A stretch of 64,000 nucleotides of DNA from positions 1,152,001-1,216,000 of the forward strand of contig CBDCXM010000009.1 in assembly GCA_965223855.1 (NCBI GenBank), in the 5' to 3' direction. The notes beneath the pieces were generated by a model, which searched no databases, was not told where the DNA came from, and was given only the letters and a program-made list of their open reading frames with translations. Source of the stretch: Candidatus Multivoradales bacterium (GTDB lineage Bacteria; Acidobacteriota; Thermoanaerobaculia; Multivoradales; JAHEKO01). The position numbers and the translations under genes were made by a program. Position 1 is the first letter of the stretch. Each line of letters opens with the position of its first letter. This document shows, in pieces, positions 31,018 to 54,969 of the stretch.

Positions 31018-31030
31018 ACCGAGGTGTGAC

Positions 31031-31891
31031 ATGAGCGGTGGTTTGATCATTCCGATCGGCGGCGCCGAGGACCGGATGCGCGATCCTGCGATCCTGCAGA
31101 AGTTCGTCGACGTCTGCGGCGGCAGGGACGCCCGGATCGCCATCATCCCGACGGCCTCGAGCCTCCCCGAGACCGGCCCCGGCTACGAGAAGGTCTTCGA
31201 GGAACTCGGCGTGCGGCTGGTGCGCTCACTGCCGCTCGAGACGCGCGAGGACTGCAACGATCCGCGCTGGCTCGAACGGCTGGAACGCGCCGACGGCGTC
31301 TTCCTGACCGGCGGCAACCAGTTGAAGCTCTCGACCACCATCGGCGGCACCGAAGTGGCTCGGACCCTCAGGCGGCGCAATGCCGAAGAGGGGCTCCACG
31401 TCGCCGGCACCTCGGCCGGCGCGGCGATCCTCTCCGAGCACATGATCGCGTTCGGCGACGAGGGGTCGACCCCGCACGCCGACATGGTGACGCTGGCGCC
31501 CGGTATCGGGCTCACCCAGAGGGTGATCATCGATCAGCACTTCCGCCAGCGCGACCGGCTGGGGCGACTGCTGACCGCACTGGCCTTCAATCCGCGCGGC
31601 ATCGGCATCGGGCTCGACGAGGACACCGCCGCCTTCCTCTCTCCCGACGGCCTGCTGAAGGTGCGCGGCAGCGGCGCGATCACGGTCGTCGATCCCTCGG
31701 AGCTGGAGTTCTCGTCGATGGATTCGGCGAAACGGCTCGAGCCGGTGTGCATGCTCAACGTGCGGCTTCACATCCTGATCGAGGGGGCGACCTACGACAT
31801 CCCGTCGCGCAGCGCCGCGCCGCCGCCCGCACTCCAGCCGGAGGAGACGCCGTCGAAGGAGCCCGCGCCGAAGGAGGCGGTCACGCCATGA
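31031..31891 (+). CDS. cphB: Cyanophycinase (intracellular)
   Basis: IGGAED, TGGNQ, GTSAGA (Ser), IDQHF (His), GLDEDT (Glu); no signal peptide. Confidence 0.93.
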   Translation: MSGGLIIPIGGAEDRMRDPAILQKFVDVCGGRDARIAIIPTASSLPETGPGYEKVFEELGVRLVRSLPLETREDCNDPRWLERLERADGVFLTGGNQLKLSTTIGGTEVARTLRRRNAEEGLHVAGTSAGAAILSEHMIAFGDEGSTPHADMVTLAPGIGLTQRVIIDQHFRQRDRLGRLLTALAFNPRGIGIGLDEDTAAFLSPDGLLKVRGSGAITVVDPSELEFSSMDSAKRLEPVCMLNVRLHILIEGATYDIPSRSAAPPPALQPEETPSKEPAPKEAVTP

Positions 31892-34683: not shown

Positions 34684-34696
34684 CGGGGTTCCGCTC

Positions 34697-36382
34697 TTGG
34701 AAGTCCGCGACAGCCGCCGCCTGACCGGCCCCAACATCGTCTCCGACGGTCCGGCTGCGGTCTTGGACGTCGTGCGCGGCGAGGGTGACGACGCCGAGGC
34801 TGCGATCGCCGCCTGGCGATCGCAGCTCGAGCGGATGCTCATGGCGGTCGGCTGGCAGGGAGCCCAGACCTTCACCCGGATCTTCCACGGCGGCCTGAGC
34901 GTCGCCTTCGCCGCCCCGATCGACGCCCTCTACGCCGCCACCGAGGTCAACGAATGGGCGTGGGCCGCCGCGGTCGAGGAGCTGGGTGGCGACCCGGCGC
35001 CGGAGTTCGAGGCGGAGGCGGAGCGGCTGCGCGCCGAGATCGCGGGCGAGCTGAATCCGCCGGTCCTCGCGCTCCAGAAGGCAGCCGCCGTGCACGGGGT
35101 CCAGTTCCTGTGGGACGACGACTTCGTCTCGGTCGGCCTCGGCTCCGGTTCGCGAACCTGGAAGGTGTCCGGCGTGCCCGACCCGGGCGACGTCGACTGG
35201 GCGTCGGTTCACGATGTCCCGGTGGCTCAGGTGACCGGAACCAACGGCAAGACGACCACGGTGCGGCTCCTCGCTGCGATGGTGCGTGCCGCCGGCAAGG
35301 TCCCCGGCGTTTCGTCGACCGACTGGATCGCCGCGGGTGACGAGCTGCTCGATCGGGGCGACTACTCCGGCCCCGGGGGAGCGCGCCAGGTGCTGCGCGA
35401 CCGCCGGGTCGAATGCGCAATCCTCGAGACCGCGCGCGGCGGGATGCTGCGACGAGGGCTGGCGGTGGAGGCGACCGACGTCGCGCTGGTCAACAACATC
35501 GCGGAGGATCATCTCGGCGAGTTCGGCGTCCACGACCTCGACGCGCTGGCCGAGTGCAAGTTCATCGTCTCCCGGGCGGCGCGGCACATGGTGCTCAATG
35601 CCGATGACCCGGTGGTGCGGCGGCACGGCGAGGCGGTCGAGCAGCCGATTACCTGGTTCTCGCTGGATCGAGAGAACCCGCTCATCATCGCCCATCGCGA
35701 GCGCGGCGGTTCGACGTGCGTCCTCGAGTGGGGGCGGATCGTACTGGCGCAGGGAGACGACAAGGTGGCGGTCGCGGAGGTCGCCGAGGTTCCGGTGACC
35801 CTCGGCGGGGCGGCACGTCACAACGTCGCCAACGTTCTCGCTGCGACGGCGGTCGCGCAGCAGCTCGGCCTTTCCGTGCGCGCGATCGGCGAGGGGTTGC
35901 GCAACTTCGAGAGCACTCCCGACACCAACCCCGGCCGCCTCAACGAGTTCGAGGTCGGCGGTGCGCGGGTCATCGTCGACTTCGCCCACAACCCACACGG
36001 CGTCGAGGCGCTGCTCGAGATGGCGGCGGCACTGCCTGGCAAACGGCGGTTGATCACGATCGGCCAGGCGGGGGATCGCGACGACGACTCGATTCGCGAT
36101 CTCGCCCGGGCGACCTGGAAGGCGGCGCCCGACCGCGTGCTGATCAAGGCGATGACCGCCTATCTCCGAGGCCGCGAGGAGGGCGAGATCCCGGCGATGC
36201 TCGAGGCCGAGATGCGCGCGCACGGCGCGACCGACGCGCATCTGGTGCACACCGGGGACGAGCTCGACACGGCGCGCGCCGCTCTCGACTGGGCCGAGAA
36301 GGGCGATCTCGTGCTCCTGATAGTCCACTCCGATCGCGAGCGGGTGGTCGAGTTCCTGCGCGAGCAGGCTAACGAACGGTGA
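34697..36382 (+). CDS. CphA-like Mur ligase family protein lacking the ATP-grasp domain
   Basis: RLTGPN N-terminus, TGTNGKTT, LETARGG, EDHLG, NADDP, PGRLN, DFAHN; TTG start. Confidence 0.85.
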   Translation: MEVRDSRRLTGPNIVSDGPAAVLDVVRGEGDDAEAAIAAWRSQLERMLMAVGWQGAQTFTRIFHGGLSVAFAAPIDALYAATEVNEWAWAAAVEELGGDPAPEFEAEAERLRAEIAGELNPPVLALQKAAAVHGVQFLWDDDFVSVGLGSGSRTWKVSGVPDPGDVDWASVHDVPVAQVTGTNGKTTTVRLLAAMVRAAGKVPGVSSTDWIAAGDELLDRGDYSGPGGARQVLRDRRVECAILETARGGMLRRGLAVEATDVALVNNIAEDHLGEFGVHDLDALAECKFIVSRAARHMVLNADDPVVRRHGEAVEQPITWFSLDRENPLIIAHRERGGSTCVLEWGRIVLAQGDDKVAVAEVAEVPVTLGGAARHNVANVLAATAVAQQLGLSVRAIGEGLRNFESTPDTNPGRLNEFEVGGARVIVDFAHNPHGVEALLEMAAALPGKRRLITIGQAGDRDDDSIRDLARATWKAAPDRVLIKAMTAYLRGREEGEIPAMLEAEMRAHGATDAHLVHTGDELDTARAALDWAEKGDLVLLIVHSDRERVVEFLREQANER

Positions 36383-38311: not shown

Positions 38312-38434
38312 TGGAACCGAAGGATCATACCGGCGAAGTGACGGACGGCACGGTTTCGGAGACCTCTTCCCCTCAGGTAGGGTTGGGGGAAGTGCACGAA
38401 TGAAAGATCGACAAGGTTCGAGATGGGGATCCCG

Positions 38435-39073
38435 ATGAGGTTCTACCGAACTGCTGCGCTCGCCACCCTCTCGCTGGCCGGAGTTCTGGCCAGTGCCGAG
38501 ACGGAGGGTCGAGAACGCCGCCAGCGCGGTGAGCGGGTCGGAGCTCCGATCCGGGGTCTGGAACGGGCGGAACGCTTCGAGGGCGGCGGTCTGGTGCAGT
38601 ACGACCCTGGTCTCCCAGACGGTACTCGTTTCACCGATCAGGGCTTCAGTTGGCTGGGCAACCTCTTCGACACTCGGAGCGGTTCGCCGCTGGGACCAGG
38701 CACGATAACCCAGATTCAGTGGTACAACGGTCAAACCAACCCGACCGACAACTATCTCGTGATCTTCCCGCAGTCCGGTCCCGACTACGGTGGTTTCGTG
38801 GGGTCCGTCGACAGCTTTGCTTTCAACACCTATAACCTCATCCATGGGCCCGTGACGGCGCCGGTTTTCGTCGGGTTCTACGCGGCCGACCAACCGGCCA
38901 CGCCGGTCAGCCTCGGTTACGCCAATGGCAGCTACAACGGCCAGGGCTTCCATGCATCGCAACGGACGTTCTTCGACAGTGCGGGCGAGACCATCCCTGG
39001 AATGAACATCGTGCTGCGCATCTCCGGAAGTCTCATCATTCCGGTGGAGTTGCTCGAGTTCGAGGTCGAGTAG
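38435..39073 (+). CDS. Secreted hypothetical protein with C-terminal PVELLEFEVE motif
   Basis: Signal peptide, Asn/Gly/Phe-rich beta domain, visibly lower GC than neighbours. Confidence 0.7.
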   Translation: MRFYRTAALATLSLAGVLASAETEGRERRQRGERVGAPIRGLERAERFEGGGLVQYDPGLPDGTRFTDQGFSWLGNLFDTRSGSPLGPGTITQIQWYNGQTNPTDNYLVIFPQSGPDYGGFVGSVDSFAFNTYNLIHGPVTAPVFVGFYAADQPATPVSLGYANGSYNGQGFHASQRTFFDSAGETIPGMNIVLRISGSLIIPVELLEFEVE

Positions 39074-39163: not shown

Positions 39164-40045
39164 TTGAAGCCGGCACCATTCGAATACCGGGCTCCCCGCA
39201 CGCTCGACGAGGTTCTCGAGCTGCTGGCGGAGCACGGCCCGGAGGCGAAGCTGCTGGCGGGCGGGCAGAGCCTGATCCCGGTGATGAACTTCCGGCTGGC
39301 GCAGCCGGCGCTGCTGGTCGATCTCAACGGTGTCGAGGGGCTCGACGGTTGGGAGCCGACGGCGGACGGGGGCGTGCGGATCGGCGGTCTGAGCCGCCTG
39401 AGCGCGCTCGAGCGGCGGCCGGAGTTGGCCGCCCACTCTCCGCTGCTGGCCGAGGCGCTGCCGTGGGTCGCTCATCCGCAGATCCGCAATCGCAGCACCC
39501 TGGGCGGGACCCTCGCCCACGCCGACCCGGCCGCCGAGGTACCGGCGGTCTGTCTCGCCGAGGGGGCGCGGTTCCGGATCGCTCGTCGGGAGGGCGAGCG
39601 CTGGGTCGAGGCGCGCGACTTCTTCCGCGGTCTCTTCGACACCGCGCTCGAGCCGGAGGAGGCGCTGGTCGAAGTCGAGCTGCCGCCGCCGTCCGCCGCT
39701 ACCGGCAGCAGCTTCCAGGAGATCGCCCGCCGGCACGGCGATTACGCTCTCGCCGGCGTCGCGGCGCGCGTCGAGCTCGACGGTGACGGCGCGATCCGTC
39801 GCGCCCGGCTGGTCTACCTGAGTGTCGGCGATACGCCGGTCGAGGCGCGGGCGGCGAGCGACATGCTCGAAGGCGAGAGCCCTTCGTCCGAGCTCTTCGC
39901 CGCCGCCGCGGCGCACGCTGCGGAGCACGAGGTCGATCCGGCCGGCACGATCCACGCCACGCCGGAGTTCACCCGCCATCTGGTCGGGGTGCTCACCCGG
40001 CGAGCGCTGACGGCGGCCGTCGCCCGCGCGGGAGGGGCGGCATGA
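39164..40045 (+). CDS. Xanthine dehydrogenase family FAD-binding subunit (CoxM/CutM-like)
   Basis: KPAPFEY, LAGGQSL, HPQIRNRSTLGG, HADPAAE. Confidence 0.92.
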   Translation: MKPAPFEYRAPRTLDEVLELLAEHGPEAKLLAGGQSLIPVMNFRLAQPALLVDLNGVEGLDGWEPTADGGVRIGGLSRLSALERRPELAAHSPLLAEALPWVAHPQIRNRSTLGGTLAHADPAAEVPAVCLAEGARFRIARREGERWVEARDFFRGLFDTALEPEEALVEVELPPPSAATGSSFQEIARRHGDYALAGVAARVELDGDGAIRRARLVYLSVGDTPVEARAASDMLEGESPSSELFAAAAAHAAEHEVDPAGTIHATPEFTRHLVGVLTRRALTAAVARAGGAA

Positions 40046-40551
40046 GCGACCGGGCTCAGGGCGCCCGTCTACCGGTGCGGCTCGAGGTCAACGGCGCGAG
40101 CTATGAGGGCGAGGCGGAGCCGCGGACGCTCCTTTCCGACTTCCTGCGCCACGACCTCGGGCTGACCGGCACGCACGTCGGCTGTGAGCACGGGGTGTGC
40201 GGCGCCTGTACGGTGCTCTTCGACGGCGAGGCGGTGCGTGCCTGCCTGCTGCTGGCGGTGCAGGCCGACGGCCATCGGATCGAGACGGTGGAGGGGCTCG
40301 CTCCCGCCGACGGCGACGAACGGCTTCATCCGCTGCAGCAGGCGTTCCAGGACGCGCACGGGCTGCAGTGCGGTTTCTGCACCCCGGGCTTTCTGATGAC
40401 GCTGGTGCCGTTCCTCGAGGCGAATCCCGACCCGAGCGAAGAGGAGATCCGGCACGCCATCTCCGGCAACCTGTGCCGTTGCACCGGCTACCAGCACATC
40501 GTCGATGCGGTGCAGCTCGCGGCGCGCCGGCAGCGCGGGGAGGACGAGTGA
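40042..40551 (+). CDS. (2Fe-2S)-binding subunit (CoxS/CutS-like)
   Basis: GCEHGVCGACTV, QCGFCTPG, NLCRCTGY. Confidence 0.94.
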   Translation: MSDRAQGARLPVRLEVNGASYEGEAEPRTLLSDFLRHDLGLTGTHVGCEHGVCGACTVLFDGEAVRACLLLAVQADGHRIETVEGLAPADGDERLHPLQQAFQDAHGLQCGFCTPGFLMTLVPFLEANPDPSEEEIRHAISGNLCRCTGYQHIVDAVQLAARRQRGEDE

Positions 40552-41837
40552 TCGCGAGTCCGGCGCCCGGTTCGCTCGCGGCAGCGTCGGACGTCGACCG
40601 CTGGCTCGAAGGGCTGCGACTCGCCTTCGACGAGGTCGAACCTCTGGTCGGCGCCTTCGTCGAGGAGCCCGATCGCTGGTCGCGGCTCGCGGCTGCCGCG
40701 CGGAGCCTCCTCCTGCGCTACCCCGACGAGCGCGATCGTCCGCCGTTCTTCGGCGTCGCGGTCGGGGTCAAGGACATCTTCCATGTCGACGGTCTCGAGA
40801 CCCGGGCGGGAAGCAGCGTACCGCCGGCCGAGCTCGCCGGCCCGCAGGCGGAGTCGGTACGCCGCCTCGCGGCCGCCGGAGCGATCGTCCTCGGCAAGAC
40901 GGTGACGACCGAGTTCGCCTACTTCGCGCCGCGCGGCACGCGCAACCCGGCCGATCCCGACCGCACTCCGGGCGGGTCGTCGAGCGGCTCGGCCGCGGCC
41001 GTCGCTGCCGGGCTGTGTCCTCTTTCTCTGGGGACACAGACGATCGGCTCGATCTCCCGACCCGCCTCCTACTGCGGCGTGGTCGGCTTCAAGCCGAGCT
41101 ACGAGCGCATCCCGAGGACGGGAGTCATCCCGCTGGCGCCGTCGGTCGATCACGTCGGCTTCTTCACCCCGGATGTCGCGGCCGCCCGCCGGGCCGCCGC
41201 CGTGCTCCTCGACGGCTGGCTCGGCGGGGGAGACGGGCGGCCCCCACGGCTGGCGATTCCGACCGGGCCTTACCTCGACGCCCTCGAGCCGGGTGGGCGC
41301 GAGCGCTTCGAGCGCGGCTGCCGTCTGCTGGCGGACGCCGGGCTGGAGTGGCAGGACGTCCCTGCGATGCCGGACTTCGACGACGTGGTTGCCCGTCACC
41401 GGCGTCTCGTCGCCGCCGAAGCCGCCGAGGTGCATCGCGAGTGGTTCGCGCGCTACGGCGAGAGCTACCACCCGAAGACCCGCGAGCTGATCGAATCGGG
41501 GCTCGAGGTCGACGCCGAAGAGCTGGAAGCGGCACGGCGCGGGCGTCTGCGGCTCCGACAAGAGCTCGAGTCCGAGATGGAGCGCCACGGGATCGACGTC
41601 TGGCTGACGCCGGCCTCCCAGGACGTTGCGCCGACCGGCCTCGACTCGACCGGGGATCCGATCCTCAACCTGCCATGGAGCCATGCCGGTCTGCCATCGA
41701 TCACCCTGCCGTCGATCACTCCGGCGGCTTCGGCGAAGGGCGAGCTGCCGTTCGGGCTGCAGTTCGTCGGCCGGTTCGGCGCCGACGAGGCGCTTCTCGA
41801 GGCGGCAGCCGCGTGGGAAAGGGGGCTCGGCCGTTGA
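40548..41837 (+). CDS. Amidase signature family enzyme
   Basis: GVKD (Lys), PGGSSSGSAAAV, GTQTIGSI.RPASYCG. Confidence 0.9.
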   Translation: MIASPAPGSLAAASDVDRWLEGLRLAFDEVEPLVGAFVEEPDRWSRLAAAARSLLLRYPDERDRPPFFGVAVGVKDIFHVDGLETRAGSSVPPAELAGPQAESVRRLAAAGAIVLGKTVTTEFAYFAPRGTRNPADPDRTPGGSSSGSAAAVAAGLCPLSLGTQTIGSISRPASYCGVVGFKPSYERIPRTGVIPLAPSVDHVGFFTPDVAAARRAAAVLLDGWLGGGDGRPPRLAIPTGPYLDALEPGGRERFERGCRLLADAGLEWQDVPAMPDFDDVVARHRRLVAAEAAEVHREWFARYGESYHPKTRELIESGLEVDAEELEAARRGRLRLRQELESEMERHGIDVWLTPASQDVAPTGLDSTGDPILNLPWSHAGLPSITLPSITPAASAKGELPFGLQFVGRFGADEALLEAAAAWERGLGR

Positions 41838-43495
41838 GCGTCGAGCGCCACATCGTCCGCACCGGGTCCTACTTCGACTCGGTCGTGCTGATGCAGTTGC
41901 AGCGCCGGCTGGCCGAGCTCGACGGGGTCGAGGAGGCGGGGGTGGTCATGGCGACTCGAGCCAACCTCGAGCTGCTCTCGCGAGCGGGTTTGCAGACCGA
42001 GCGAATCGAGGCACGACCGGACGACCTCCTGGTCCTGGTCCGGGGCACGACCGAAGCCGCGGCGCGCAGTGCTCTCGACCGCTTCGACGAGCTGGCGGGC
42101 GAGCGGACCGCGGCCGCGGCGACCGACTACCGCCCGAAGAGTGTGGCGACGGCGCTCAAGGAGCGCCCGGAGGCGAACTGGGTCCTGGTGTCGGTTCCCG
42201 GAGAGTACGCAGCCGCCGTCGCCCGCCAGGCGATCGATGCCGGGCGACACGTCTTCCTCTACAGCGACAACGTGTCGCTGGAAGACGAGGTGGCACTCAA
42301 GCGCCATGCCGAGCGCCGCAGGCGGCTGGTGCTGGGGCCGGACTGCGGCACCGCGATGATCGGCGGGGCGGGCCTCGGCTTCGCCAACCGGGTGCGTCGG
42401 GGGGACGTCGGTATCGTCGCCGCGTCGGGGACCGGTCTCCAGACGATCGCCTCGAGGCTCCATCGTGAGGGGAGAGGGGTGTCGCACGGCATCGGCACCG
42501 GTGGTCGCGATCTGGCGAGCGACGTCGGCGGTCGCACGGCGCTGGCCGCCCTGGCCGCGCTGGCGGCGGACGAGGAGACCCGGGTCGTGGTGCTGGTCTC
42601 GAAGCCGCCGCATCCCGAAGTCGCGGCGCGCCTCCTGTCGGCCGCCGCGAGGGTCGGCAAGCCGGTGGTCGTCCATTTCCAGGGGCGCGGCCTTGCCGGG
42701 CGGCGCCTCGGCCCGCTCCACTTCGCCGTCGACCTCGAGCATGCGGCCGCTCTGGCAGCCGAGCTGGCCGAGAAGCCTCCGCCGCCGTTCGAGCCGACAG
42801 GCGACGGCCTCCTCCGCGGCCTCTTCTCGGGAGGCACGTTGGCGGGCGAGGCGGTGGTGCGGCTCGAGCCTCTGCTGCCGGAACTGGTCTCCAACCTGTC
42901 CAAGGAGAGTTCGATCGTCGATCTTTCGACCTTCGCCGGCCACGCAGTGCTCGACCTCGGGGCCGACCAGTTCACCGTCGGTCGGCCGCACCCGATGATC
43001 GATCCGCAGGTGGTGGCGGAGCACCTCTCCCACGCGGCCGCCGACAAGAGGGTCGCGACGATCGTCGTCGACGTCGTCCTCGGTGACGGTGCCCACCCCG
43101 ACCCGGCGTCAATCCTCGCTCCGGCGATCGAGCGTGCCCGCAGGAAGGCACGCGAGGACCTGGCCGTCCTCGCCCTCGTCGTCGGTACCGAGGAAGACCG
43201 CCAGGAGATCGGCGCGCAGTGCGACCGGCTCGAGGAGGCGGGTGCCGAGGTGTTCGATTCGCTGTCGCCGGCGCTCGAGCGGGTCGTCGCGCGTTCGCTC
43301 CCTCCGAGGACCGAAGACGAGGTTCGGGCGATCGCCCTCGAGCCGCCGCGGGAGGTGATCAACGTCGGCATCGATCTCTTCCGCGAGAGCCTCGAGGCGC
43401 AGGAGGTGCCGGTGCTGCAGGTCGATTGGCGGCCGCCCGCCGGCGGCAACGAGAAACTCGCCACGATCGTGGCGCGACTGAGGGAGAGCGCATGA
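41834..43495 (+). CDS. fdrA: FdrA family acyl-CoA synthetase-like protein
   Basis: YFDSVVLM, SVPG.YA, GPDCGT, IGTGGRDL, GLFSGGTL, GRPHPMIDP; C-terminal DWRPPAGG segment. Confidence 0.9.
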   Translation: MSVERHIVRTGSYFDSVVLMQLQRRLAELDGVEEAGVVMATRANLELLSRAGLQTERIEARPDDLLVLVRGTTEAAARSALDRFDELAGERTAAAATDYRPKSVATALKERPEANWVLVSVPGEYAAAVARQAIDAGRHVFLYSDNVSLEDEVALKRHAERRRRLVLGPDCGTAMIGGAGLGFANRVRRGDVGIVAASGTGLQTIASRLHREGRGVSHGIGTGGRDLASDVGGRTALAALAALAADEETRVVVLVSKPPHPEVAARLLSAAARVGKPVVVHFQGRGLAGRRLGPLHFAVDLEHAAALAAELAEKPPPPFEPTGDGLLRGLFSGGTLAGEAVVRLEPLLPELVSNLSKESSIVDLSTFAGHAVLDLGADQFTVGRPHPMIDPQVVAEHLSHAAADKRVATIVVDVVLGDGAHPDPASILAPAIERARRKAREDLAVLALVVGTEEDRQEIGAQCDRLEEAGAEVFDSLSPALERVVARSLPPRTEDEVRAIALEPPREVINVGIDLFRESLEAQEVPVLQVDWRPPAGGNEKLATIVARLRESA

Positions 43496-44757
43496 CTTCC
43501 AACCCGGTGGACGCGGCCAACCGCGAGGCGCTCGAACGGATGATGGCGGTCCGCCCGGTACTCGAGACCGTGGCGGTGGCCGGTGACGTCGTTCCCGGCC
43601 TCGACGCCAAGCGGATCCTTCACGCCGGGCCGCCGATCGAATGGGCTCGGATGTCGGGCCCGCTGCGCGGCGCGGTGATCGGGGCGCTGCTCTTCGAAGG
43701 GCTCGCCGACTCGCGCGAGTCGGCCATCCACCTCATCGAGCAGGGGGAGATCGCTTTCTCGCCGTGCCACCACCACCACGCCGTCGGCCCGATGGCCGGT
43801 GTGACGTCGGCCTCGATGCAGGTCTACGTCGTGCGCGACGCCGAGGGCAAGGGGCACGCCTATTCGACCCTCAACGAGGGCTACGGCAAGGTGCTGCGCT
43901 ACGGCGCCTACGCCCCCGAGGTGCTGGAGAAGTTGCGCTGGATGAACGTCCAGATGGGGCCGATCCTCGCCGCCGCCCTCGACGCGTGCGGCGGCATCGA
44001 TCTGCGGGCGCTGCTGGCGGAGGCGCTCCATATGGGCGACGAGGGGCACAACCGCAACAAGGCGGGATCGCTCCTCTTCACCCGGCACCTGGCGCCGAGC
44101 ATCTTCGAGGTCGCCGGGGACCGCGCCCTCGGCTCGGCGATCGTCGAGTTCCTCGGCGACAACGCGCTGTCGGTGCTCAATCCGGTGATGGCGGCGTGCA
44201 AGGTGATGGCGGACTCCGCCCACGGCGTCGAGCGCTCGACCCTGGTGACGACGATGGCGCGCAACGGCACCGACTTCGGCATCCGGGTCAGCGGGCTCGG
44301 CGAGCGCTGGTTCACGGCGCCCGCCCAGGTGCCCGACGGCCTCTATTTCCCGGGCTTCACCAGCGACGACGCCAACCCGGACATCGGCGATTCGACGATT
44401 ACCGAGACCGCCGGCATCGGCGCCTTCGCCATGGCGGCGGCGCCTGCGATCGTTAACTTCGTCGGCGGCGCGCCCGAAGAGGCGACGCACGCGACGCTCG
44501 AGATGTACGAGATCACCGCCGGCGAACACAAGCACTTCACGATCCCTCAGCTCGGCTTCCGGGGGACGCCGGTGGGGATCGACCTGCGCGACGTCGTCGA
44601 GCTCGGGGTGACGCCGCGGGTCAACACCGGCATTGCCCATCGCGAGGCCGGTGTCGGCCAGGTGGGAGCGGGCCTCGTGAGGCCGCCGATGAAGATCTTT
44701 GAAGAGGCGCTCGAGGCGTTCGCCGAGCGCTACCTGCCGCGCGAGGCGCGTCCGTGA
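43492..44757 (+). CDS. DUF1116 (YlbE/YahG-like) protein
   Basis: LHAGPP, PCH, AVGPMAG, MGDEGHNRN, ARNG..FGI, DIGDS.ITET, NTGIAH. Confidence 0.9.
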   Translation: MTSNPVDAANREALERMMAVRPVLETVAVAGDVVPGLDAKRILHAGPPIEWARMSGPLRGAVIGALLFEGLADSRESAIHLIEQGEIAFSPCHHHHAVGPMAGVTSASMQVYVVRDAEGKGHAYSTLNEGYGKVLRYGAYAPEVLEKLRWMNVQMGPILAAALDACGGIDLRALLAEALHMGDEGHNRNKAGSLLFTRHLAPSIFEVAGDRALGSAIVEFLGDNALSVLNPVMAACKVMADSAHGVERSTLVTTMARNGTDFGIRVSGLGERWFTAPAQVPDGLYFPGFTSDDANPDIGDSTITETAGIGAFAMAAAPAIVNFVGGAPEEATHATLEMYEITAGEHKHFTIPQLGFRGTPVGIDLRDVVELGVTPRVNTGIAHREAGVGQVGAGLVRPPMKIFEEALEAFAERYLPREARP

Positions 44758-47120
44758 GCGCGGGCGAGAAAACGCTCGTCGGCAAGCGGGTACGGCGCAA
44801 TGAGGACCCGCGCCTGCTGACCGGGCGGGCGCTCTTCGTCGACGACGTCGTGCGCCCGGACATGCTGCACGTGGCGTTCCTGCGCAGCCCCTTCGCCCAC
44901 GCGCGGATCAACGAAGTCGACGTCGATCTGGCGCGCGATCTCGACGGCGTCCACGCTGTCTACACCGCCGCCGACCTGGGAGAGTACTGGCAGCACGGCC
45001 CGCTGCTGGTGCCGCCGCCGCCGGTCGAGGGGGTGGTGTTCCACGAGCGCACCCAGGTGCCGCTGGCGCGTCATAAGATCCGCCACCTCGGCGAGCCGGT
45101 GGCGATGGTGGTGGCGGACAGCCGGGCGATCGCCGAGGACGCGGTCGATCGGATCTTCCTCGATTGCGATCCGCTCGACGCGGTCGTCGACCTGGAACAG
45201 GCGTTGGCGGAGGGGGCGCCGCTCGTTCACGACGACCTGGAGTCGAACCTCGCCGCCTTCGTGCCGCAGAAGAAGGGCGACTACGCCGCGGCGCTCGAAC
45301 GCGCGGACCTCGTGCTGCGTCGGCGCTACGTCTACGACCGCGGTGCTTCGGCGGCGATCGAGAACCGCGGCGTGGTGGCGGAGTGGAATCGCCTCAGCGA
45401 GCGGCTGACCGTCTGGGACACGACGCAGGCGCCGATCCCGATCCGCAACGGCCTCGCGGCGATGCTGGGACTGTCGGAGTCGCAGGTGCGGGTCGTCGCG
45501 CCCTTCGTCGGCGGCGGCTTCGGGCCGAAGATCATGATGTTCTATCCCGAGGAGGTACTGCTGCCGTGGGCGGCGATGCGGCTCGACCGGCCGCTCAAGT
45601 GGATCGAGGATCGCTCGGAGAACTTCGTCGCCACGACCCAGGAACGGGGCCAGATCCACGACGCCGAGATCGCGCTGTCGAAGGACGGGCGTGTGCTGGG
45701 GGTCCGGGACAGCTTCCTCCACGACACCGGCGCCTACGATCCCTACGGCCTCACGGTGCCGCTCAACAGCCAGTGCACGCTGCTCGGGCCCTACGACATC
45801 CCCGCCTACGAGAGTGAGCTGCGGGCGGTCTTCACGAACAAGACGATCGTCACTCCGTACCGCGGCGCCGGTCGCCAGCACGGGGTGTTCGTCATCGAGC
45901 GGCTCCTCGACGCCGCCGCCAGGGAGCTGGGGATCGACCGCATCGAGATTCGGCGGCGCAACTTCATCCGCCCGGAGCAGTTCCCGTACGCCAACGAGGT
46001 GATCTACCAGGACGCGGCGCCGCTGGTCTACGACAGCGGCAACTACGAGCCGCTGCTCGACAAGGCGCGTGAGCTCATCGGCTGGGACGAGTTCGTCACC
46101 ACGACGCAGCCGGAGGCGCGGGCCGCCGGCCGGCACGTCGGCATCGGCATCGTCGCCTACGTCGAAGGGACCGGTATCGGCCCCTACGAGGGGGCGCGGG
46201 TGCAGGTCGAGCCGACGGGGAAGATCACCGTCGTCACCGGCGTCGGCACCCAGGGGCAGGGCCACTACACGGTGCTCGCACAGATCGCCGCCGAGCTGCT
46301 GGGGGCGGAGGTGGACGAGGTCGAGGTGACGACCGGCGATACCGACCAGTTCCACTGGGGGAGCGGCACCTTCGCTTCACGGGGAGCGGTGGTCGCCGGC
46401 AACGCGGTGCGCGCGGCGGCGGCGGACGTGCGGCAGAGGATGCTCGCGCTGGCTGCACGCCACCTCGAGGCAGAAATCGATGAACTCGAGGTCGTCGCCG
46501 GCCATGTCCGGGTCGCTGCGGAGCCGGATCGCACGGTCGATCGTCGCGAGCTGGCGCGCCTCGCCAATCCGCTGCGCGGCGCCGTCGAGCCCGGGACCGA
46601 GCCGGGTCTCGAGTCGACCCAGTACTTCGGGCCGTACCGTGGCGCTACCGCGAGTGGCGTGCATGCCGCGATCGTCGAGATCGATCCGGAGACGATGCTG
46701 GTCGAGATCCTCGACTACGTCGTGGTGCACGACTGCGGCAAGGTGCTCAACCCGCTGCTGGTCGACGGGCAGGTGCACGGCGGGGTGGCGCAGGGGGTCG
46801 GCAACGCCTTCTACGAGCAGCTCGTCTACGACGACGGCGGCCAGCTCCTCAACGCCTCGTTCATGGATTTCCTGTTGCCGACGGCGCTCGACGTGCCGCG
46901 GGTCAAGGTCGGCCACCTCGAGACGCCGTCGCCGCTCAATGAGCTGGGCTCCAAGGGAGCCGGAGAGGCGGGCGCGATCCCGACCGGGGCGCTCTTCGTC
47001 CAGGCGGTCGAGGATGCACTGCGCATCCCCGGATTCGAGATCCGGGAGATCCCGCTCCACCCAAGTCGCCTGTGGGAGCTGGCGACGGCAGCCCGCGCGG
47101 AGGCGGAGGAGGCCTCATGA
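44754..47120 (+). CDS. Xanthine dehydrogenase family molybdopterin-binding subunit (form II CoxL/CutL-like)
   Basis: EDPRLLTG, VGGGFGPK, PYRGAGR, QGQGH, GTFASR, GQVHGG, KGAGEAG. Confidence 0.93.
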   Translation: MSAGEKTLVGKRVRRNEDPRLLTGRALFVDDVVRPDMLHVAFLRSPFAHARINEVDVDLARDLDGVHAVYTAADLGEYWQHGPLLVPPPPVEGVVFHERTQVPLARHKIRHLGEPVAMVVADSRAIAEDAVDRIFLDCDPLDAVVDLEQALAEGAPLVHDDLESNLAAFVPQKKGDYAAALERADLVLRRRYVYDRGASAAIENRGVVAEWNRLSERLTVWDTTQAPIPIRNGLAAMLGLSESQVRVVAPFVGGGFGPKIMMFYPEEVLLPWAAMRLDRPLKWIEDRSENFVATTQERGQIHDAEIALSKDGRVLGVRDSFLHDTGAYDPYGLTVPLNSQCTLLGPYDIPAYESELRAVFTNKTIVTPYRGAGRQHGVFVIERLLDAAARELGIDRIEIRRRNFIRPEQFPYANEVIYQDAAPLVYDSGNYEPLLDKARELIGWDEFVTTTQPEARAAGRHVGIGIVAYVEGTGIGPYEGARVQVEPTGKITVVTGVGTQGQGHYTVLAQIAAELLGAEVDEVEVTTGDTDQFHWGSGTFASRGAVVAGNAVRAAAADVRQRMLALAARHLEAEIDELEVVAGHVRVAAEPDRTVDRRELARLANPLRGAVEPGTEPGLESTQYFGPYRGATASGVHAAIVEIDPETMLVEILDYVVVHDCGKVLNPLLVDGQVHGGVAQGVGNAFYEQLVYDDGGQLLNASFMDFLLPTALDVPRVKVGHLETPSPLNELGSKGAGEAGAIPTGALFVQAVEDALRIPGFEIREIPLHPSRLWELATAARAEAEEAS

Positions 47121-47731
47121 AACTCGCCGGAACGCACATCTTCGCCGTCCCGAGGGAGCGGTTGTGGGAAGCACTGCTCGATCCCGAGATCCTCGCCCGC
47201 ACCCTGCCGGGCTGCGACGCCCTCGAGCGGATCGAGGAGAACAAATACCGCGGCGCCCTCACTGTCGCCATCGGGCCGGTGCGCGGCCAGTTCCAGGGAA
47301 CGCTCGAGCTCTCCGATCTCGATCCGCCCGACGGCTACGACATGGTGGTCAAGGGACAGGGCCCCGCCGGCTTCATGAAGGGGAAGGGCCGGATCTCCCT
47401 GGCCGAGGCGGAGGGCGGTACCGAGCTGACCTACGACCTCGACGCCCAGGTGGGCGGCCGGATCGCCGGCGTCGGTCAGCGCCTGCTCGACAGCTCCGCG
47501 AAGGTGGTGGCGCAGCAGGGGCTCGAGGGATTGGCGGCGCAGGTCGAGGGTGGTGGGGATGGCGCCGAAGCGACCGAGCCCCCCGCTCCCCCCAGCCAGA
47601 CACAGATGGCGGCGCGCTTCGCCGGCGGACTGTGGAAAGAGATGGTGCCCGCCCCCGTGCGCAAGGGGCTGGAGATTCTTGTCTGGCTGGCGCTGGGAGC
47701 GGCGCTCGGCTGGTGGCTGCGCGGCGGCTGA
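47117..47731 (+). CDS. coxG: CoxG (SRPBCC) family protein with C-terminal TM
   Basis: DPEILARTLPGC, IGPVRG, GGRIAGVGQRL. Confidence 0.88.
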   Translation: MKLAGTHIFAVPRERLWEALLDPEILARTLPGCDALERIEENKYRGALTVAIGPVRGQFQGTLELSDLDPPDGYDMVVKGQGPAGFMKGKGRISLAEAEGGTELTYDLDAQVGGRIAGVGQRLLDSSAKVVAQQGLEGLAAQVEGGGDGAEATEPPAPPSQTQMAARFAGGLWKEMVPAPVRKGLEILVWLALGAALGWWLRGG

Positions 47732-51515: not shown

Positions 51516-54239
51516 ATGAGCGACGAACGTCGGCCGACGCCGGCCGAGCGGCTCGCTCAGCGGGTCGCGGACGGTGGCGAGGTCGTCTGGGAGAACGAGC
51601 GTCGTCACTCGACGGACGATCGTCTCTCGGGCCTCGAGCTGTTGGAGGCGGTCGGTCGGGTCTTCAAGGGGGAGGCTGCCGGCGAACCGGTCCTCTTTGA
51701 ATGGGGGCCGCTGCAACTGCTCGAGAAGCTGGGGGAGGGTGCGTTCGGGGAGGTCTATCGGGCGCTCGATCCACAGCTCGGGCGACAGGTGGCGCTCAAG
51801 TTGCGGAAGGGCGACGACGGCGCATCGGAGAGCGAAGAGTGGCTGGAGGAGGCACGACGGTTGGCGCGCATTCGCCACCGCAACGTGTTGACCGTCCACG
51901 GGGCCGGCAGCTTCGACGGACGCCAGGGGATCTGGTCGGATCTGATCGAGGGAGAGACGTTGCAGGCCCGGCAGCTTCGGGACGGGCCGATGGGGGCGGG
52001 AGAACTCGTAGCGGTCGGGTCGTCGCTGCTCCAGGCGCTGGCGGCGATCCACGCCGCCGGCATGGTGCACGGCGACGTCAAGCCGTCGAACCTCGTACGC
52101 GAGGTTGGAGGTCGCCTGGTGCTGGTGGACCTCGGGGCCGGAGGATCGATCGGTGCGGCCGAGGCGGCGACCCGCGGGTCGCCGCAAACCGCCGCTCCCG
52201 AGCGGATCCGTGGTGAGCCCTCGTCTGCGCGGGCGGATCTCTACAGCGCCGGAGCGACGCTCTACCAGTTGGCAGCGGGGCGCCCGCCGATCGAGGCGGG
52301 CTCCCTCGGCGAGCTCGCTGAAACCGATCGGGCCGCGACGCCGCTACGCGACCTGAGGCCGGACCTTCCCGCGGAACTCGTCGACGTAATCGAGCAATCG
52401 CTTTCGTTCGCCCCGGGCGACCGCTTCGCTACGGCCGGCGAGATGGAGGCTCGCCTCCGACGCTCGGTGAGCGGCGGCCGCCGGAAGATGCCGTCCCACC
52501 GACGATCTGCGGCGCGCCATCTCACTCTGACCCTGGTCGCCCTCGCGGCCGTTGGCGCCGCGTGGTGGTGGAGCGCCGCACGCCGCCCGGTGGCACTCGG
52601 TCCGGCACACGGTGAGCTGGAGGTCACCCGTCTTCAGGCACAGGGGACAGCGGTGTTCGCGGCGATTTCGCCCGATGGACGCTACGTGAGCTATCTGTCC
52701 GACTTCGGTGAAAAGAGCGCGATACGGCTTCACCAGGTCGCGACCGGTTCCGACCTCGCGCTCGCCGAGTTCACCCGCCACCACCAGGTCAACTACATCG
52801 GCTTCACTCCCGATGGCGCTTACGTCCGCTACACCCTGGGGGAGTTGGGGCAGGCCAATCGTCTGTTCGAGGTGCCGGTCCTCGGAGGGCCGGCAAGCCG
52901 TCTCCTCGACGACGTGGTTCTCGGACTGACGTTCTCGCCCGACGGCTCCGAAGCGGTCTACGTCTCGGGCACGGAGATGGACCAGAGGTGGCAGAGGCTC
53001 GAGCGGGTGCGACTTGCCGACCGGGATCGGCGGACGATCCTGGAGGTCGAGGACGAGTGGGACATCGAGAACGCCGCCTGGTCCCCGAAAGGCGACCGAC
53101 TCGCTCTTTCCCTTTCCGACACCTCGGCGGATCGACTCATGCTGCTACCTGCGGAAGGGGGCGAGCTGGAACCGGTGGTCGGCGATCCGTTCTTCGCCAT
53201 TGGCGACCTGTGCTGGCTTCCGGACGGGCGGCGGATGATCGTCGTGGGTTCGGAAACCGAGCGGGACACCGTCCGACAGTCGTGGCTCGTCGATGTCGAG
53301 ACCGGCGATCGCCGACGACTGTTGCGCGACGTCTCGAACAGCTTCGGCTGCTCGACGACAGCGGATGGCCGGCGGACGGTGCTGACGCGGCATCGGACCC
53401 AGTCGCGACTGTGGGTGACGGAGCTGGAGGAGGGGTCGAGGCCGTCGCTCGTGAACACGACGACCGGCTTCGACGACGGCGTCAGCGCGGTTGCCTGGAT
53501 AGACGACGATTGGGTCGCCTACGTCGCGCCGGATGGCGACACCTACAATCTCTGGCGAGTGCCGATCGACGGCGGGACCTCTGAGCGGCTGACGACCGGA
53601 GGGGCTGAGGCGGTGACGGCGAGTCGCGCCGGCTCGATCGCCTACGAAGCAGGATGGAGTCGAGACAACCGGCAGGGCATCTACCTGATGGAGTTCCCGT
53701 CGCGGGCTGCCCGGCGTCTTTCGCCCGATGGGGTCTATGCCGAGGTGCCGGCTCTCTCACCTGACGGCAGAACGGTGGCCTATTCGCTCCTCGGGGCCGA
53801 GAGGCTTCAGCTCGTGGTGCAGGCGGTCGATGGAGGCGAGCCGAGGGTGGTTTTCGACGGCCCCGCTCACGCAGCGACGTTCTCCCCCGACGGACTTTGG
53901 CTCGCTCTCCATGCCCTCCATCCCGAGGAACGAGTCTGGAAGACCGCGGTCTTCCCGGTAGACGGAAACGGCCCGACCGAGTGGCTCGACATTCACTCGG
54001 ACTCCATGTCCCCGTGGCTGTCGATGGAGACCGTCCTCGTCAGCAAGACCGTCGATCGCGTGGGGAACGTGCTGGCCGTCCCTCGCGACAACTCGGGACC
54101 GCGACCGATAACGGCATTCCAGGAGGGAATGGTCTTTTCCTTCGCCGTCTCGCCGACGGGAGATCGACTCGTCGTCGCGAGAGGCGACTGGGTGAGCGAT
54201 CTGCTGCTCTACGAAGGACACCTCCCGACCGTCGAGTAG
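51516..54239 (+). CDS. Membrane Ser/Thr kinase with extracytoplasmic TolB/PD40 beta-propellers (kinase 1)
   Basis: LGEGAFGEVY, VALK, HGDVKPSN, DLG, APE, DLYS; one TM; many SPDG repeats. Confidence 0.9.
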   Translation: MSDERRPTPAERLAQRVADGGEVVWENERRHSTDDRLSGLELLEAVGRVFKGEAAGEPVLFEWGPLQLLEKLGEGAFGEVYRALDPQLGRQVALKLRKGDDGASESEEWLEEARRLARIRHRNVLTVHGAGSFDGRQGIWSDLIEGETLQARQLRDGPMGAGELVAVGSSLLQALAAIHAAGMVHGDVKPSNLVREVGGRLVLVDLGAGGSIGAAEAATRGSPQTAAPERIRGEPSSARADLYSAGATLYQLAAGRPPIEAGSLGELAETDRAATPLRDLRPDLPAELVDVIEQSLSFAPGDRFATAGEMEARLRRSVSGGRRKMPSHRRSAARHLTLTLVALAAVGAAWWWSAARRPVALGPAHGELEVTRLQAQGTAVFAAISPDGRYVSYLSDFGEKSAIRLHQVATGSDLALAEFTRHHQVNYIGFTPDGAYVRYTLGELGQANRLFEVPVLGGPASRLLDDVVLGLTFSPDGSEAVYVSGTEMDQRWQRLERVRLADRDRRTILEVEDEWDIENAAWSPKGDRLALSLSDTSADRLMLLPAEGGELEPVVGDPFFAIGDLCWLPDGRRMIVVGSETERDTVRQSWLVDVETGDRRRLLRDVSNSFGCSTTADGRRTVLTRHRTQSRLWVTELEEGSRPSLVNTTTGFDDGVSAVAWIDDDWVAYVAPDGDTYNLWRVPIDGGTSERLTTGGAEAVTASRAGSIAYEAGWSRDNRQGIYLMEFPSRAARRLSPDGVYAEVPALSPDGRTVAYSLLGAERLQLVVQAVDGGEPRVVFDGPAHAATFSPDGLWLALHALHPEERVWKTAVFPVDGNGPTEWLDIHSDSMSPWLSMETVLVSKTVDRVGNVLAVPRDNSGPRPITAFQEGMVFSFAVSPTGDRLVVARGDWVSDLLLYEGHLPTVE

Positions 54240-54297
54240 ACGTCCCTGATCCCCCGCCTTCCCCGCGGTTCCGGCCCGCAGCGCTCTTGCCAGGTCC

Positions 54298-54324
54298 GTG
54301 CGGTCCTCGGAGCGAAGGCGTTTC
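54298..54324 (+). promoter_or_regulatory. Putative ECF sigma promoter, copy 2
   Basis: GTGCG gtcctcggagcgaa GGCGTTTC upstream of the gene at 54378. Confidence 0.7.
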
Positions 54325-54377
54325 ATGGGGTGGCGATCGGCAGCGGATGCCGGTGCCTTCGACCGCAAGGAGGAGTT

Positions 54378-54884
54378 GTGAAGAAGAAAGCAGGAATGCG
54401 AGTTGCTGCCACGGTTCTCGGGCTGATGTGCCTGGCCGGTTCGCTCGAGGCTGACTCGAGTTGCTCGTTGACGGTCGGGGGAGAGGAGTTGTCTTTCCCC
54501 CACGTCGTTGCCGTGGCCACGAAGAACTGGTTCGACGACAGTCTCGAGGACGTCGACGTCTACTGCTTCCGGGTGCCGGTCCCCGAGGACAAGCGCTCCT
54601 CCGAAGCGATCCTCTGGTTCGAGAACGACAACCACATCACGATCTCCATCGCCGCGCCCCAGATGCACGTCGGCGCGGTCAGGATTCACACCGAGGAGGT
54701 CAGCGCCTCGATCTCGGGGATCGGCTTCGGGGTCGACTTCGAAGGGAGCCGGAGCGGCGACAGGCTCTCCGGAACGATCTCCACCCCGGAACCGAAGTCG
54801 ACGCTGAGCGATGGCGAGCGTGGGCCCGAGTGGAAGCTCTCCGCGGAGCTCGATCTCCAGGTATGGCCTCAGATCGAGCGCTGA
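54378..54884 (+). CDS. Small secreted hypothetical (paralog of 50237..50752)
   Basis: AAGGAGG RBS then GTG; signal peptide; beta-rich. Confidence 0.72.
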   Translation: MKKKAGMRVAATVLGLMCLAGSLEADSSCSLTVGGEELSFPHVVAVATKNWFDDSLEDVDVYCFRVPVPEDKRSSEAILWFENDNHITISIAAPQMHVGAVRIHTEEVSASISGIGFGVDFEGSRSGDRLSGTISTPEPKSTLSDGERGPEWKLSAELDLQVWPQIER

Positions 54885-54894
54885 CGTCTCCTCG

Positions 54895-54923
54895 GCTCAG
54901 CACTGGGCCGCTCAGCGCTGGGC
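54895..54923. repeat. Tandem 15-bp-period repeat GCTCAGCRCTGGGC x2
   Basis: Copies at 54895-54908 and 54910-54923, each near-palindromic, just before TATGCT at 54931. Confidence 0.55.
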
Positions 54924-54969
54924 GCTCTTGTATGCTGGAACCGTCTGCAGGAGGACGGCGCAAGACGAG

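Follow-up and report, generated by a model that had tools for sequence, protein, structure and literature searches.

We analyzed an operon in which the subunits of a molybdenum hydroxylase are interleaved with an amidase and with homologs of the Escherichia coli proteins FdrA (AllF) and AllG. The operon occupies positions 39164-47731 of a 64,000-nucleotide stretch of DNA from Candidatus Multivoradales bacterium (the window), which corresponds to C9:1152001-1216000 of a 4.52-Mb, 9-contig assembly that is 92.5% complete and has a G+C content of 70%. We find that the operon represents a real, conserved gene cluster, one that we have not found described, and that it brings together an enzyme of the AllFGH type and what appears to be oxidative pyrimidine catabolism. 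Tentatively, we propose that its products degrade a pyrimidine-type nucleobase by an oxidative route, with uracil or thymine as the most likely substrate.

The seven open reading frames (ORFs) of the operon all lie on the plus strand and encode, in order, the medium (M) and small (S) subunits of the hydroxylase, the amidase (Ami), FdrA, AllG (DUF1116), the large subunit (L) of the hydroxylase, and CoxG. Every stop codon is TGA, and all six junctions are 4-nt start/stop overlaps (ATGA, GTGA, TTGA, ATGA, GTGA and ATGA). The 4-nt overlaps agree with the original prediction; most of the starts are preceded by G-rich Shine-Dalgarno-like stretches. Overlaps of 4 nt are also found in 12 of the 31 same-strand neighbor pairs of the window. 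Because they are this genome's usual operon style, we regard six of them in a row as the mark of one translationally coupled unit rather than as an oddity, and it is the retention of the arrangement in other genomes that lifts it above chance. A terminator scan found no terminator-like site on the plus strand between 38200 and 48200, and a promoter scan of the operon region found no sigma-70-like site; terminator-like sites were seen on the minus strand only, at chance level. As had been noted at the outset, the operon contains neither a gene for YlbF (DUF2877; AllH), the third subunit of the E. coli enzyme AllFGH, nor a gene for carbamate kinase.

Conservation of the gene unit and its FdrA-free counterpart

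A protein scan for AllG, taking one genome per species, returned 136 confirmed relatives. The best 80 loci, all from other genomes, were analyzed by placing the window proteins and the recurrent neighbors on them with tblastn; many of these loci end at contig ends. FdrA adjoins AllG in 65 of the 80 loci, Ami-FdrA-AllG is kept in 26, and the full series M-S-Ami-FdrA-AllG is kept in 20. An L subunit is present in 41 loci, at 60% identity or more in 28 of the 80 and below 40% in 14, and M orthologs with 52-74% identity lie at the corresponding place in relatives. The loci are carried by Acidobacteriota, Chloroflexota, Gemmatimonadota, a 'Deltaproteobacteria' metagenome-assembled genome (MAG) and a 'Firmicutes' MAG. 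On the basis of AllG and of the flanks they have in common, Thermoanaerobaculia MAGs (Acidobacteriota) are closest to the window. A synteny search had been suggested together with the original prediction, and the gene order is indeed conserved.

The commonest order, found in Acidobacteriota and Anaerolineae, is M-S-Ami-FdrA-AllG-cyclase-L-(CoxG). It includes a PF04199 cyclase gene, which is present in 56 of the 80 loci and directly follows AllG in 52; 11 of the 15 gap ORFs scanned in relatives' loci are PF04199 proteins (113-137 bits). The window, its nearest relative (locus L003) and locus L042 have no cyclase between AllG and L. The metal motif H-x-x-T-H-x-D-x-x-x-H is present in 55 of 57 aligned cyclases, which is to say in all of those whose ORF spans the site, since the ORFs called for the cyclases of L010 and L061 begin downstream of the motif. 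We considered whether the AllG-linked cyclases might be dead enzymes that replace AllH, and rejected this: only 7 of 46 cyclases fitted a strict motif pattern, but an alignment, which included both the AllG-linked cyclases and those of the FdrA-free clusters described below, then showed that the His-His-Asp-His core is kept wherever the site is covered.

Hydroxylases of three lineages or arrangements accompany one and the same FdrA-AllG core. Besides the window type, there is a Chloroflexota clade of the AllG tree (clade B, 25 of 72 rows) with the order NCS2 permease-M-S-L'-FdrA-AllG-cyclase-unknown-thiolase-DUF35-AllH. Its L' is only ~29% identical to L of the window, carries a xanthine dehydrogenase (XDH)-like MRGFGMPE loop, and has XdhA and 4-hydroxybenzoyl-CoA reductase as its best models. 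In the actinomycetes Nonomuraea gerenzanensis and Embleya sp. NBC_00888, an NCS2-M-S-L-CoxG series (L at 48% identity) is divergent from [AllH]-FdrA-AllG, and the Embleya cluster adds a CN-hydrolase. Because separate hydroxylase lineages are linked to FdrA-AllG, it appears that the FdrA-AllG back end acts on the product of ring hydroxylation. The cultured status of Nonomuraea gerenzanensis and Embleya sp. NBC_00888 also makes the hypothesis directly testable. Among the 80 loci, further recurrent genes encode a thiolase (20 loci), an NCS1 or NCS2 permease (13), a CN-hydrolase (7), a cytosine-deaminase-like amidohydrolase (5) and a malonyl-CoA-synthase-like ligase (4), and relatives' loci also carry CDA-fold deaminases and PnrA-type ABC transporters. 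As a separate observation, the clade B loci (L061, L080, L082 and ~20 other Chloroflexota loci, as well as L104-L106) encode a 229-aa protein that falls into no Pfam or NCBIfam family, and they contain no amidase.

We also examined a phylum sample of 301 Acidobacteriota genomes. Eight of them bear AllG and 22 bear the L clade (64-75% identity), the next best matches to L being at most 45% (the unpublished genome G049 is listed with 41% matches only). In all six of the AllG-bearing genomes whose context was examined, a cyclase or hydroxylase lies beside FdrA-AllG. Locus L103 comes from a member of the same taxonomic order as the source of the window. Its genes read ligase-M-S-Ami-FdrA-AllG-L-AllH-CoxG-NCS2 permease and share a single strand, and the encoded AllH reaches 72 bits on PF11392. 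Fourteen L-clade loci were examined, 13 of which come from AllG-less genomes. Among these 13, a cyclase with 65-73% identity to an AllG-linked cyclase is present in 11, an amidase-signature amidase other than that of the window (d1, 466-469 aa) in 11, and an NCS1 permease in nine. This FdrA-free version typically reads S-L-M-NCS1-cyclase-d1, and CoxG and an NCS2 permease are encoded close by. The window-type amidase (at least 52% identity) is found in five of the 301 genomes, all five of which bear AllG; the next amidase matches, at 42-44% identity, are in nine genomes without AllG. These distributions suggest two back ends for one hydroxylase and cyclase front end: d1 alone, or Ami, FdrA and AllG in place of d1. 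The original prediction had missed both the PF04199 cyclase of most relatives and this FdrA-free sister cluster, while the hydroxylase-amidase-FdrA-AllG unit that it singled out holds up. Two Gemmatimonadota MAG loci (L024 and L044) have FdrA-AllG head-on beside a cluster of the FdrA-free type (d1, cyclase, CoA-transferase, NCS1, M, CoxG and L), an arrangement that may be intermediate between the two versions.

Within the host genome, AllG is present as a single copy. A search for DUF2877 and for carbamate kinase beyond the operon had been recommended from the start. AllH (DUF2877) was not found in this 92.5%-complete genome, either with PF11392 (0 matches, with a positive E. coli control) or by tblastn with three AllH proteins (two from relatives and that of E. 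coli). A single carbamate kinase gene is present at C8:449052-449978 (366.9 bits, cut-off 358.25), on a contig other than that of the operon. The genome's PF04199 cyclase is a 563-aa double-domain gene at C9:2631919-2633610 that stands alone. It shares 62% identity with the double cyclase encoded after AllG in several relatives, one of them of the same family, and its second domain has the H-x-x-T-H-x-D-x-x-x-H metal motif. No d1 amidase was found in the genome (best match 28-29% identity), nor was urease alpha (best 30 bits), AllC (best 28 bits) or any match to the Ldh_2/AllD family. Since the genome shows no AllC, Ldh_2/AllD or urease alpha, a purine/allantoin route is unlikely here. AtzD/barbiturase (PF09663) gave 0 matches in this genome and in the 301 phylum genomes, although the model matched no control genome either. 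The carbamate kinase gene (locus L095, G000:C8:449046-452257) adjoins a gene whose 737-aa product joins a pyridine-nucleotide-disulphide oxidoreductase to AIR-synthase-type (SelD/PurM-like) domains, and thymidine kinase and phosphoribosyltransferase genes lie near it.

Enzymes encoded by the operon

The three hydroxylase genes encode the FAD, 2x[2Fe-2S] and molybdopterin subunits of the xanthine dehydrogenase family with all of their Pfam domains. M (39164-40045; 293 aa, TTG start) is the FAD-binding medium subunit (FAD_binding_5, 157 bits; CO_deh_flav_C, 76 bits), S (40042-40551; 169 aa, ATG start) is the [2Fe-2S] small subunit (Fer2_2, 115 bits; Fer2, 32 bits), and L (44754-47120; 788 aa, GTG start) is the molybdopterin-binding large subunit (Ald_Xan_dh_C, MoCoBD_1 and MoCoBD_2). 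Judged by its sequence, the enzyme belongs to the xanthine dehydrogenase family and is not a form I CO dehydrogenase. The form I Mo-Cu loop AYxCSFR, with its copper-binding cysteine, is not in L; as the original prediction had pointed out, the loop there reads PYRGAGR (residues 368-374). Against the form I model TIGR02416, L scores 525 bits (cut-off 991). The nearest NCBIfam model is that of the aerobic CO dehydrogenase large subunit (NF040766), on which L scores 948.8 bits with a cut-off of 950, and the best solved relatives are quinoline 2-oxidoreductase (Qor, 517 bits) and Mycobacterium smegmatis CoxL (507 bits).

The loop of form II CO dehydrogenases is AYRGAGR, of which L has the variant PYRGAGR, and the function of the form II family is itself unsettled. 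L also has a GAGEAG motif near its C-terminus, and both this motif and the loop P[Y/V]RGAGRQHGV recur across the L clade; the loop is the same in the FdrA-linked and FdrA-free versions. We take the glutamate of GAGEAG to be the catalytic active-site glutamate, as in solved members of the family. With the form II CoxL/quinoline 2-oxidoreductase branch, the operon shares the M/S/L three-subunit architecture, CoxG, and the xYRGAGR form of the loop. It differs from that branch in its PYRGAGR or PVRGAGR loop, in the order M-S-[Ami-FdrA-AllG]-L, and in a context that is related to nucleobases and not to CO. Because of the genomic contexts found here, we favor a nucleobase over CO as the substrate of the PYRGAGR clade. 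CoxG (47117-47731; 204 aa, ATG start) is an SRPBCC protein (PF06240, COXG, 89.5 bits) with a hydrophobic C-terminal segment at about residues 187-201, and its gene follows that of L in 9 of the 20 M-S-Ami-FdrA-AllG loci. We also observed single in-frame TGA codons inside otherwise full-length matches to L, at G098:C17:41523-43850, at G039:C2:3669297-3671609, and in several more distant L homologs.

FdrA (41834-43495; 553 aa, TTG start) is a succinyl-CoA-synthetase-alpha-like protein with Ligase_CoA, Succ_CoA_lig and CoA_binding domains. It scores 500.7 bits on the NCBIfam model NF004760 (cut-off 433) and is 37% identical to E. coli AllF over its full length (556 columns). The motif G383-R-x-H386-P-M-x-D390 is found without variation in all 61 FdrAs compared, E. 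coli AllF among them. AllG (43492-44757; 421 aa, ATG start), also known as YlbE, matches PF06545, a family now named AllG, with 313 bits. It is 49% identical to E. coli AllG and lies on a separate branch of the AllG tree, far from that protein. The AlphaFold2 model of AllG (pLDDT, the predicted local distance difference test score, 85.9) matches only one fold, that of 3clq, an uncharacterized Enterococcus faecalis protein. In Foldseek, the template modeling (TM) score of 3clq is 0.90 and the next match has an E-value of 0.36; in VIA-align against 48,161 chains, 3clq has a Z-score of 53 and the next match one of 3.5. We had considered AllG as a succinyl-CoA-synthetase-beta-like partner of FdrA and rejected this, 3clq being the only fold match.

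Structure prediction supports binding of FdrA and AllG to each other. The predicted complex has a score of 0.84, a mark reached by 58 of 80 solved complexes and by 2 of 110 mismatched pairs, and the best of 3 controls scored 0.00. At least 89% of contacts agree between prediction runs, with partner pLDDT of at least 91. In the predicted interface, the C-terminal tail of FdrA would lie against the N-terminus and C-terminal helices of AllG. This geometry fits the fusion of FdrA and AllG that we found in a single 972-aa ORF of an Acidobacteriota MAG (L042:8318-11236), in which Pfam places Ligase_CoA at 336-482 and AllG at 644-857.

According to PMC11326118, E. coli AllFGH converts oxalurate and phosphate to carbamoyl phosphate and oxamate, all three genes are needed, and the authors argue that the enzyme serves urease-negative bacteria. 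The operon has two of the three subunits and the shared G-R-x-H-P-M-x-D motif, its host has no urease, as was argued for E. coli, and by analogy its likely reaction would be of the same type, the phosphorolysis of an N-acylurea to carbamoyl phosphate and an amide. Nonetheless, the operon departs from AllFGH in two defining features: AllH was not found in the genome, and the allantoin/carbamate-kinase setting is missing, with no carbamate kinase in the operon and no allantoin-pathway context. In addition, the FdrA-AllG pair is embedded between molybdenum hydroxylase subunits and coupled to an amidase. The DUF1116 protein annotated as yahG is ~50% identical to AllG of the window; it belongs to the E. 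coli pair YahF-YahG, paralogs of FdrA/DUF1116 whose function is unknown. The neighbors of that pair presumably include genes for a DUF2877 protein and a carbamate-kinase-like protein, but no molybdenum hydroxylase. In comammox Nitrospira, allFGHK lies beside triuret and biuret genes, as stated in PMC12625717, a context that fits a wider acylurea role of the AllFGH family.

The amidase (40548-41837; 429 aa, GTG start) carries the amidase signature (PF01425, 213.8 bits), and its best solved relative is malonamidase E2 (MAE2) of Bradyrhizobium (1ock and others), with 168.9 bits over residues 65-423. The next solved matches are an uncharacterized amidase (142 bits) and GatA (~126 bits). Lys75, Ser144 and Ser168 align with positions 62, 131 and 155 of MAE2, which we take to be the numbering of its catalytic triad; thus, the Ser-cisSer-Lys positions and the GGSS signature are kept. 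The likeness is at 168.9 bits only, and a malonamidase-like substrate is put forward as a suggestion. The d1 amidase of the FdrA-free clusters ranks differently, with 9je9 as its best match (196 bits) and MAE2 at 125 bits. Malonyl signals also come from the ligases of relatives: that of locus L013 passes the malonyl-CoA synthase model (562.3 bits, cut-off 558), and that of L103, encoded directly 5' of M, has the same model as its best, with 488 bits, below the cut-off. Taken together, the MAE2-like amidase, the malonyl-CoA-synthase-like ligases and the cytosine-deaminase-like genes suggest a pyrimidine ring that gives a malonyl unit. On these grounds, and given the missing AllC, Ldh_2/AllD and urease, the 'purine-like' substrate of the original prediction has become less likely; its coupling of hydroxylase, amidase and FdrA/AllG survives as a conserved gene unit but not as purine-like chemistry.

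Proposed pathway and alternative explanations

From the observed gene content, coupling, conservation, co-occurrence and family memberships, we infer every substrate and reaction of the following scheme. M-S-L would hydroxylate a ring carbon next to nitrogen, converting uracil to barbiturate, with electrons passing to the membrane via the tail-anchored CoxG. A PF04199 cyclase-type metal hydrolase, here perhaps the product of C9:2631919-2633610, would open the barbiturate ring to give ureidomalonate. An AllH-independent FdrA-AllG heteromer would then convert ureidomalonate and phosphate to carbamoyl phosphate and malonamate, the malonamidase-E2-like amidase would hydrolyze malonamate to malonate and ammonia, and from the carbamoyl phosphate the genome's one carbamate kinase could generate ATP, ammonia and CO2.

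This scheme builds on the oxidative pyrimidine pathway of Rhodococcus and others, in which, according to PMC3758960, a pyrimidine is converted to barbiturate, barbiturase yields ureidomalonate, and ureidomalonase yields malonate and urea. The FdrA-free clusters match this published hydrolytic sequence from barbiturate to malonate and urea (PMC3758960), and they would represent the hydrolytic oxidative pyrimidine pathway with a cyclase-type hydrolase in place of barbiturase. Because ureidomalonate is the next higher homolog of oxalurate, we read the window operon as a phosphorolytic variant. The variant would share barbiturate, ureidomalonate and malonate as intermediates, and an amidase-signature amidase and a ring-opening hydrolase beside a dehydrogenase. 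It would differ in having a PF04199 cyclase-type hydrolase in the place of barbiturase and in phosphorolyzing the ureide instead of hydrolyzing it to urea. A literature search that covered few subscription journals found nothing linking DUF1116/FdrA to a molybdenum hydroxylase, nor a gene for uracil dehydrogenase, and to our knowledge no gene has been assigned to the uracil/thymine dehydrogenase activity.

A number of observations weigh against the pyrimidine route. AllH, which E. coli requires, was not found in the genome and is present in only 15 of the 80 loci, and carbamate kinase adjoins none of the 80. The operon itself has no ring-opening cyclase, and the genomic copy lies 1.43 Mb away. 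Malonamidase E2 is one of many amidase matches, the best of them at ~170 bits. The permeases are ambiguous, their best models being those for xanthine, uracil or allantoin transport, with scores that in every case fall short of the cut-off, and the relatives' family III CoA-transferase has kinship with oxalate and formyl-CoA transferases as well. The thiolase, DUF35 OB-fold protein and 229-aa protein of clade B are unexplained by the scheme. Furthermore, two predictions did not work out. The expectation that urea-releasing FdrA-free clusters go with urease failed, as urease alpha (E-value of 1e-50 or better) was found in 0 of 25 genomes, including 18 with the FdrA-free version, so that urea either is not a product of that version or is handled otherwise. 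The expectation that carbamate kinase tracks AllG proved not to be discriminating, given that the kinase is present in 8 of 8 AllG-bearing and in 21 of 28 AllG-less genomes (the unpublished G024 among the 28).

We have therefore weighed the pyrimidine route against other explanations. It seems rather unlikely that the hydroxylase acts on another N-heterocycle or a modified base, with FdrA-AllG cleaving a different acylurea or amide and the amidase finishing the degradation. The nearest solved relatives of L do act on quinoline, 6-hydroxypseudooxynicotine and CO, every transporter and deaminase assignment is below the curated cut-offs, and the three extra clade B proteins lie outside the pyrimidine scheme; however, ring-cleaving dioxygenases or monooxygenases are not among the recurrent genes of the clusters, the recurrent transporters are all of nucleobase or nucleoside families, and the malonyl signals speak for a pyrimidine as well. 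Also unlikely, in our view, is a two-carbon version of the scheme, in which the hydroxylase and cyclase yield oxalurate, for example from a five-membered ureide of the hydantoin or parabanate type or from a purine breakdown product, FdrA-AllG convert it to oxamate, and the amidase gives oxalate. AllG of the window branches at a distance from its E. coli counterpart, the recurrent neighbors include no oxalyl-CoA decarboxylase, the genome shows no AllC, AllD or AllH, and the malonyl-CoA-synthase-like ligases and malonamidase-like amidase suggest a three-carbon remnant. Molybdenum hydroxylases usually attack an sp2 C-H next to a ring nitrogen, a preference that uracil C6 fits better than the CH2 of hydantoin. 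What can be said for oxalurate is the identity of both subunits to those of E. coli, the NCS1 permeases of relatives, which score best with allantoin-permease models (269-294 bits, below cut-offs), the kinship of the relatives' family III CoA-transferase to oxalate/formyl-CoA transferases, the xanthine-permease-family gene that lies 12 kb from the operon in the window, and the fact that oxalurate is the only proven substrate of the FdrA-AllG family (PMC11326118).

We consider it improbable that FdrA-AllG transfer the acyl part of an acylurea or amide to CoA, giving for example malonyl-CoA and no carbamoyl phosphate. The CoA_binding, Succ_CoA_lig and Ligase_CoA domains of FdrA, the thiolase, CoA-transferase and acyl-CoA-ligase genes that recur in relatives, the lack of carbamate kinase beside all 80 loci, and the lack of AllH, without which the enzyme is no plain copy of AllFGH, would all suit such a reaction. 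Set against these are the redundancy of a separate malonyl-CoA-synthase-like ligase, the tightly linked amidase, which implies a free amide product, and the 0 of 25 genomes with a urease to handle the released urea; moreover, the sole characterized member of the family makes carbamoyl phosphate without CoA (PMC11326118). Finally, we find it scarcely credible that M-S-L-CoxG is a form II CO dehydrogenase and that the three genes between are unrelated passengers. The nearest NCBIfam model, whose cut-off L narrowly misses, points in this direction, and MAG papers take CoxL proteins with PYRGAGR as 'atypical' form II CO dehydrogenases and read them as CO-oxidation potential (PMC6053391 and PMC10773090). 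Yet L has neither the form I motif nor a score near the form I cut-off, the supposed passengers are kept with the hydroxylase across phyla, nucleobase permease, cyclase hydrolase and amidase genes also adjoin the L clade in FdrA-free loci, and the six 4-nt overlaps favor one unit.

A broader form of the pyrimidine proposal, about which we are doubtful, would hold that the PYRGAGR clade is the uracil/thymine dehydrogenase, that PF04199 cyclases open barbiturate, that FdrA-AllG are general AllH-independent acylurea phosphorylases, and that together they form an ATP-yielding, urease-independent pathway in multiple phyla. If the proposal is true, it would supply genes for an oxidative pyrimidine degradation that is known biochemically but thin genetically, and would add to it a phosphorolytic, energy-conserving branch. 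It would also widen the AllFGH type of transcarbamylase from one enterobacterial substrate to an AllH-independent, acylurea-cleaving family, and a clade of 'form II CO dehydrogenases', so far read as CO-oxidation potential (PMC6053391, PMC10773090), would be reassigned.

Surroundings of the operon

The genes that flank the operon are unrelated to it. On the 5' side, the minus strand carries genes for an AlkZ-like glycosylase and a TMEM175-like protein, followed by a secreted-looking 216-aa ORF on the plus strand (38423-39073), and on the 3' side lies a convergent TonB-dependent receptor gene. We considered the 216-aa ORF as a member of the operon and rejected it, as it does not occur in relatives' loci, matches no Pfam family, and has about five paralogs. 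Its N-terminus resembles a signal peptide, and at least six copies of its family are present in the genome at 33-39% identity, with paralogs at C9:2579697, C9:433850, C9:1074816, C9:1092143 and C7:30.

Just upstream of the operon, the plus strand carries a cyanophycin gene set (29812-36382). It encodes an isoaspartyl dipeptidase (TIGR01975, 382 bits), an S51 cyanophycinase-type peptidase, a full-length cyanophycin synthetase (TIGR02068, 1144 bits), and a truncated CphA2-like ligase that consists of the Mur-ligase half only. Cyanophycin synthetases are common to the window and to relative L003. Elsewhere in the window, an extracytoplasmic function (ECF) sigma factor gene followed by genes for two Ser/Thr kinases with PD40/beta-propeller tails (51516-57570), and a gene for a 955-aa TPR-CHAT protein (61098-63965), are likewise unrelated to the operon.

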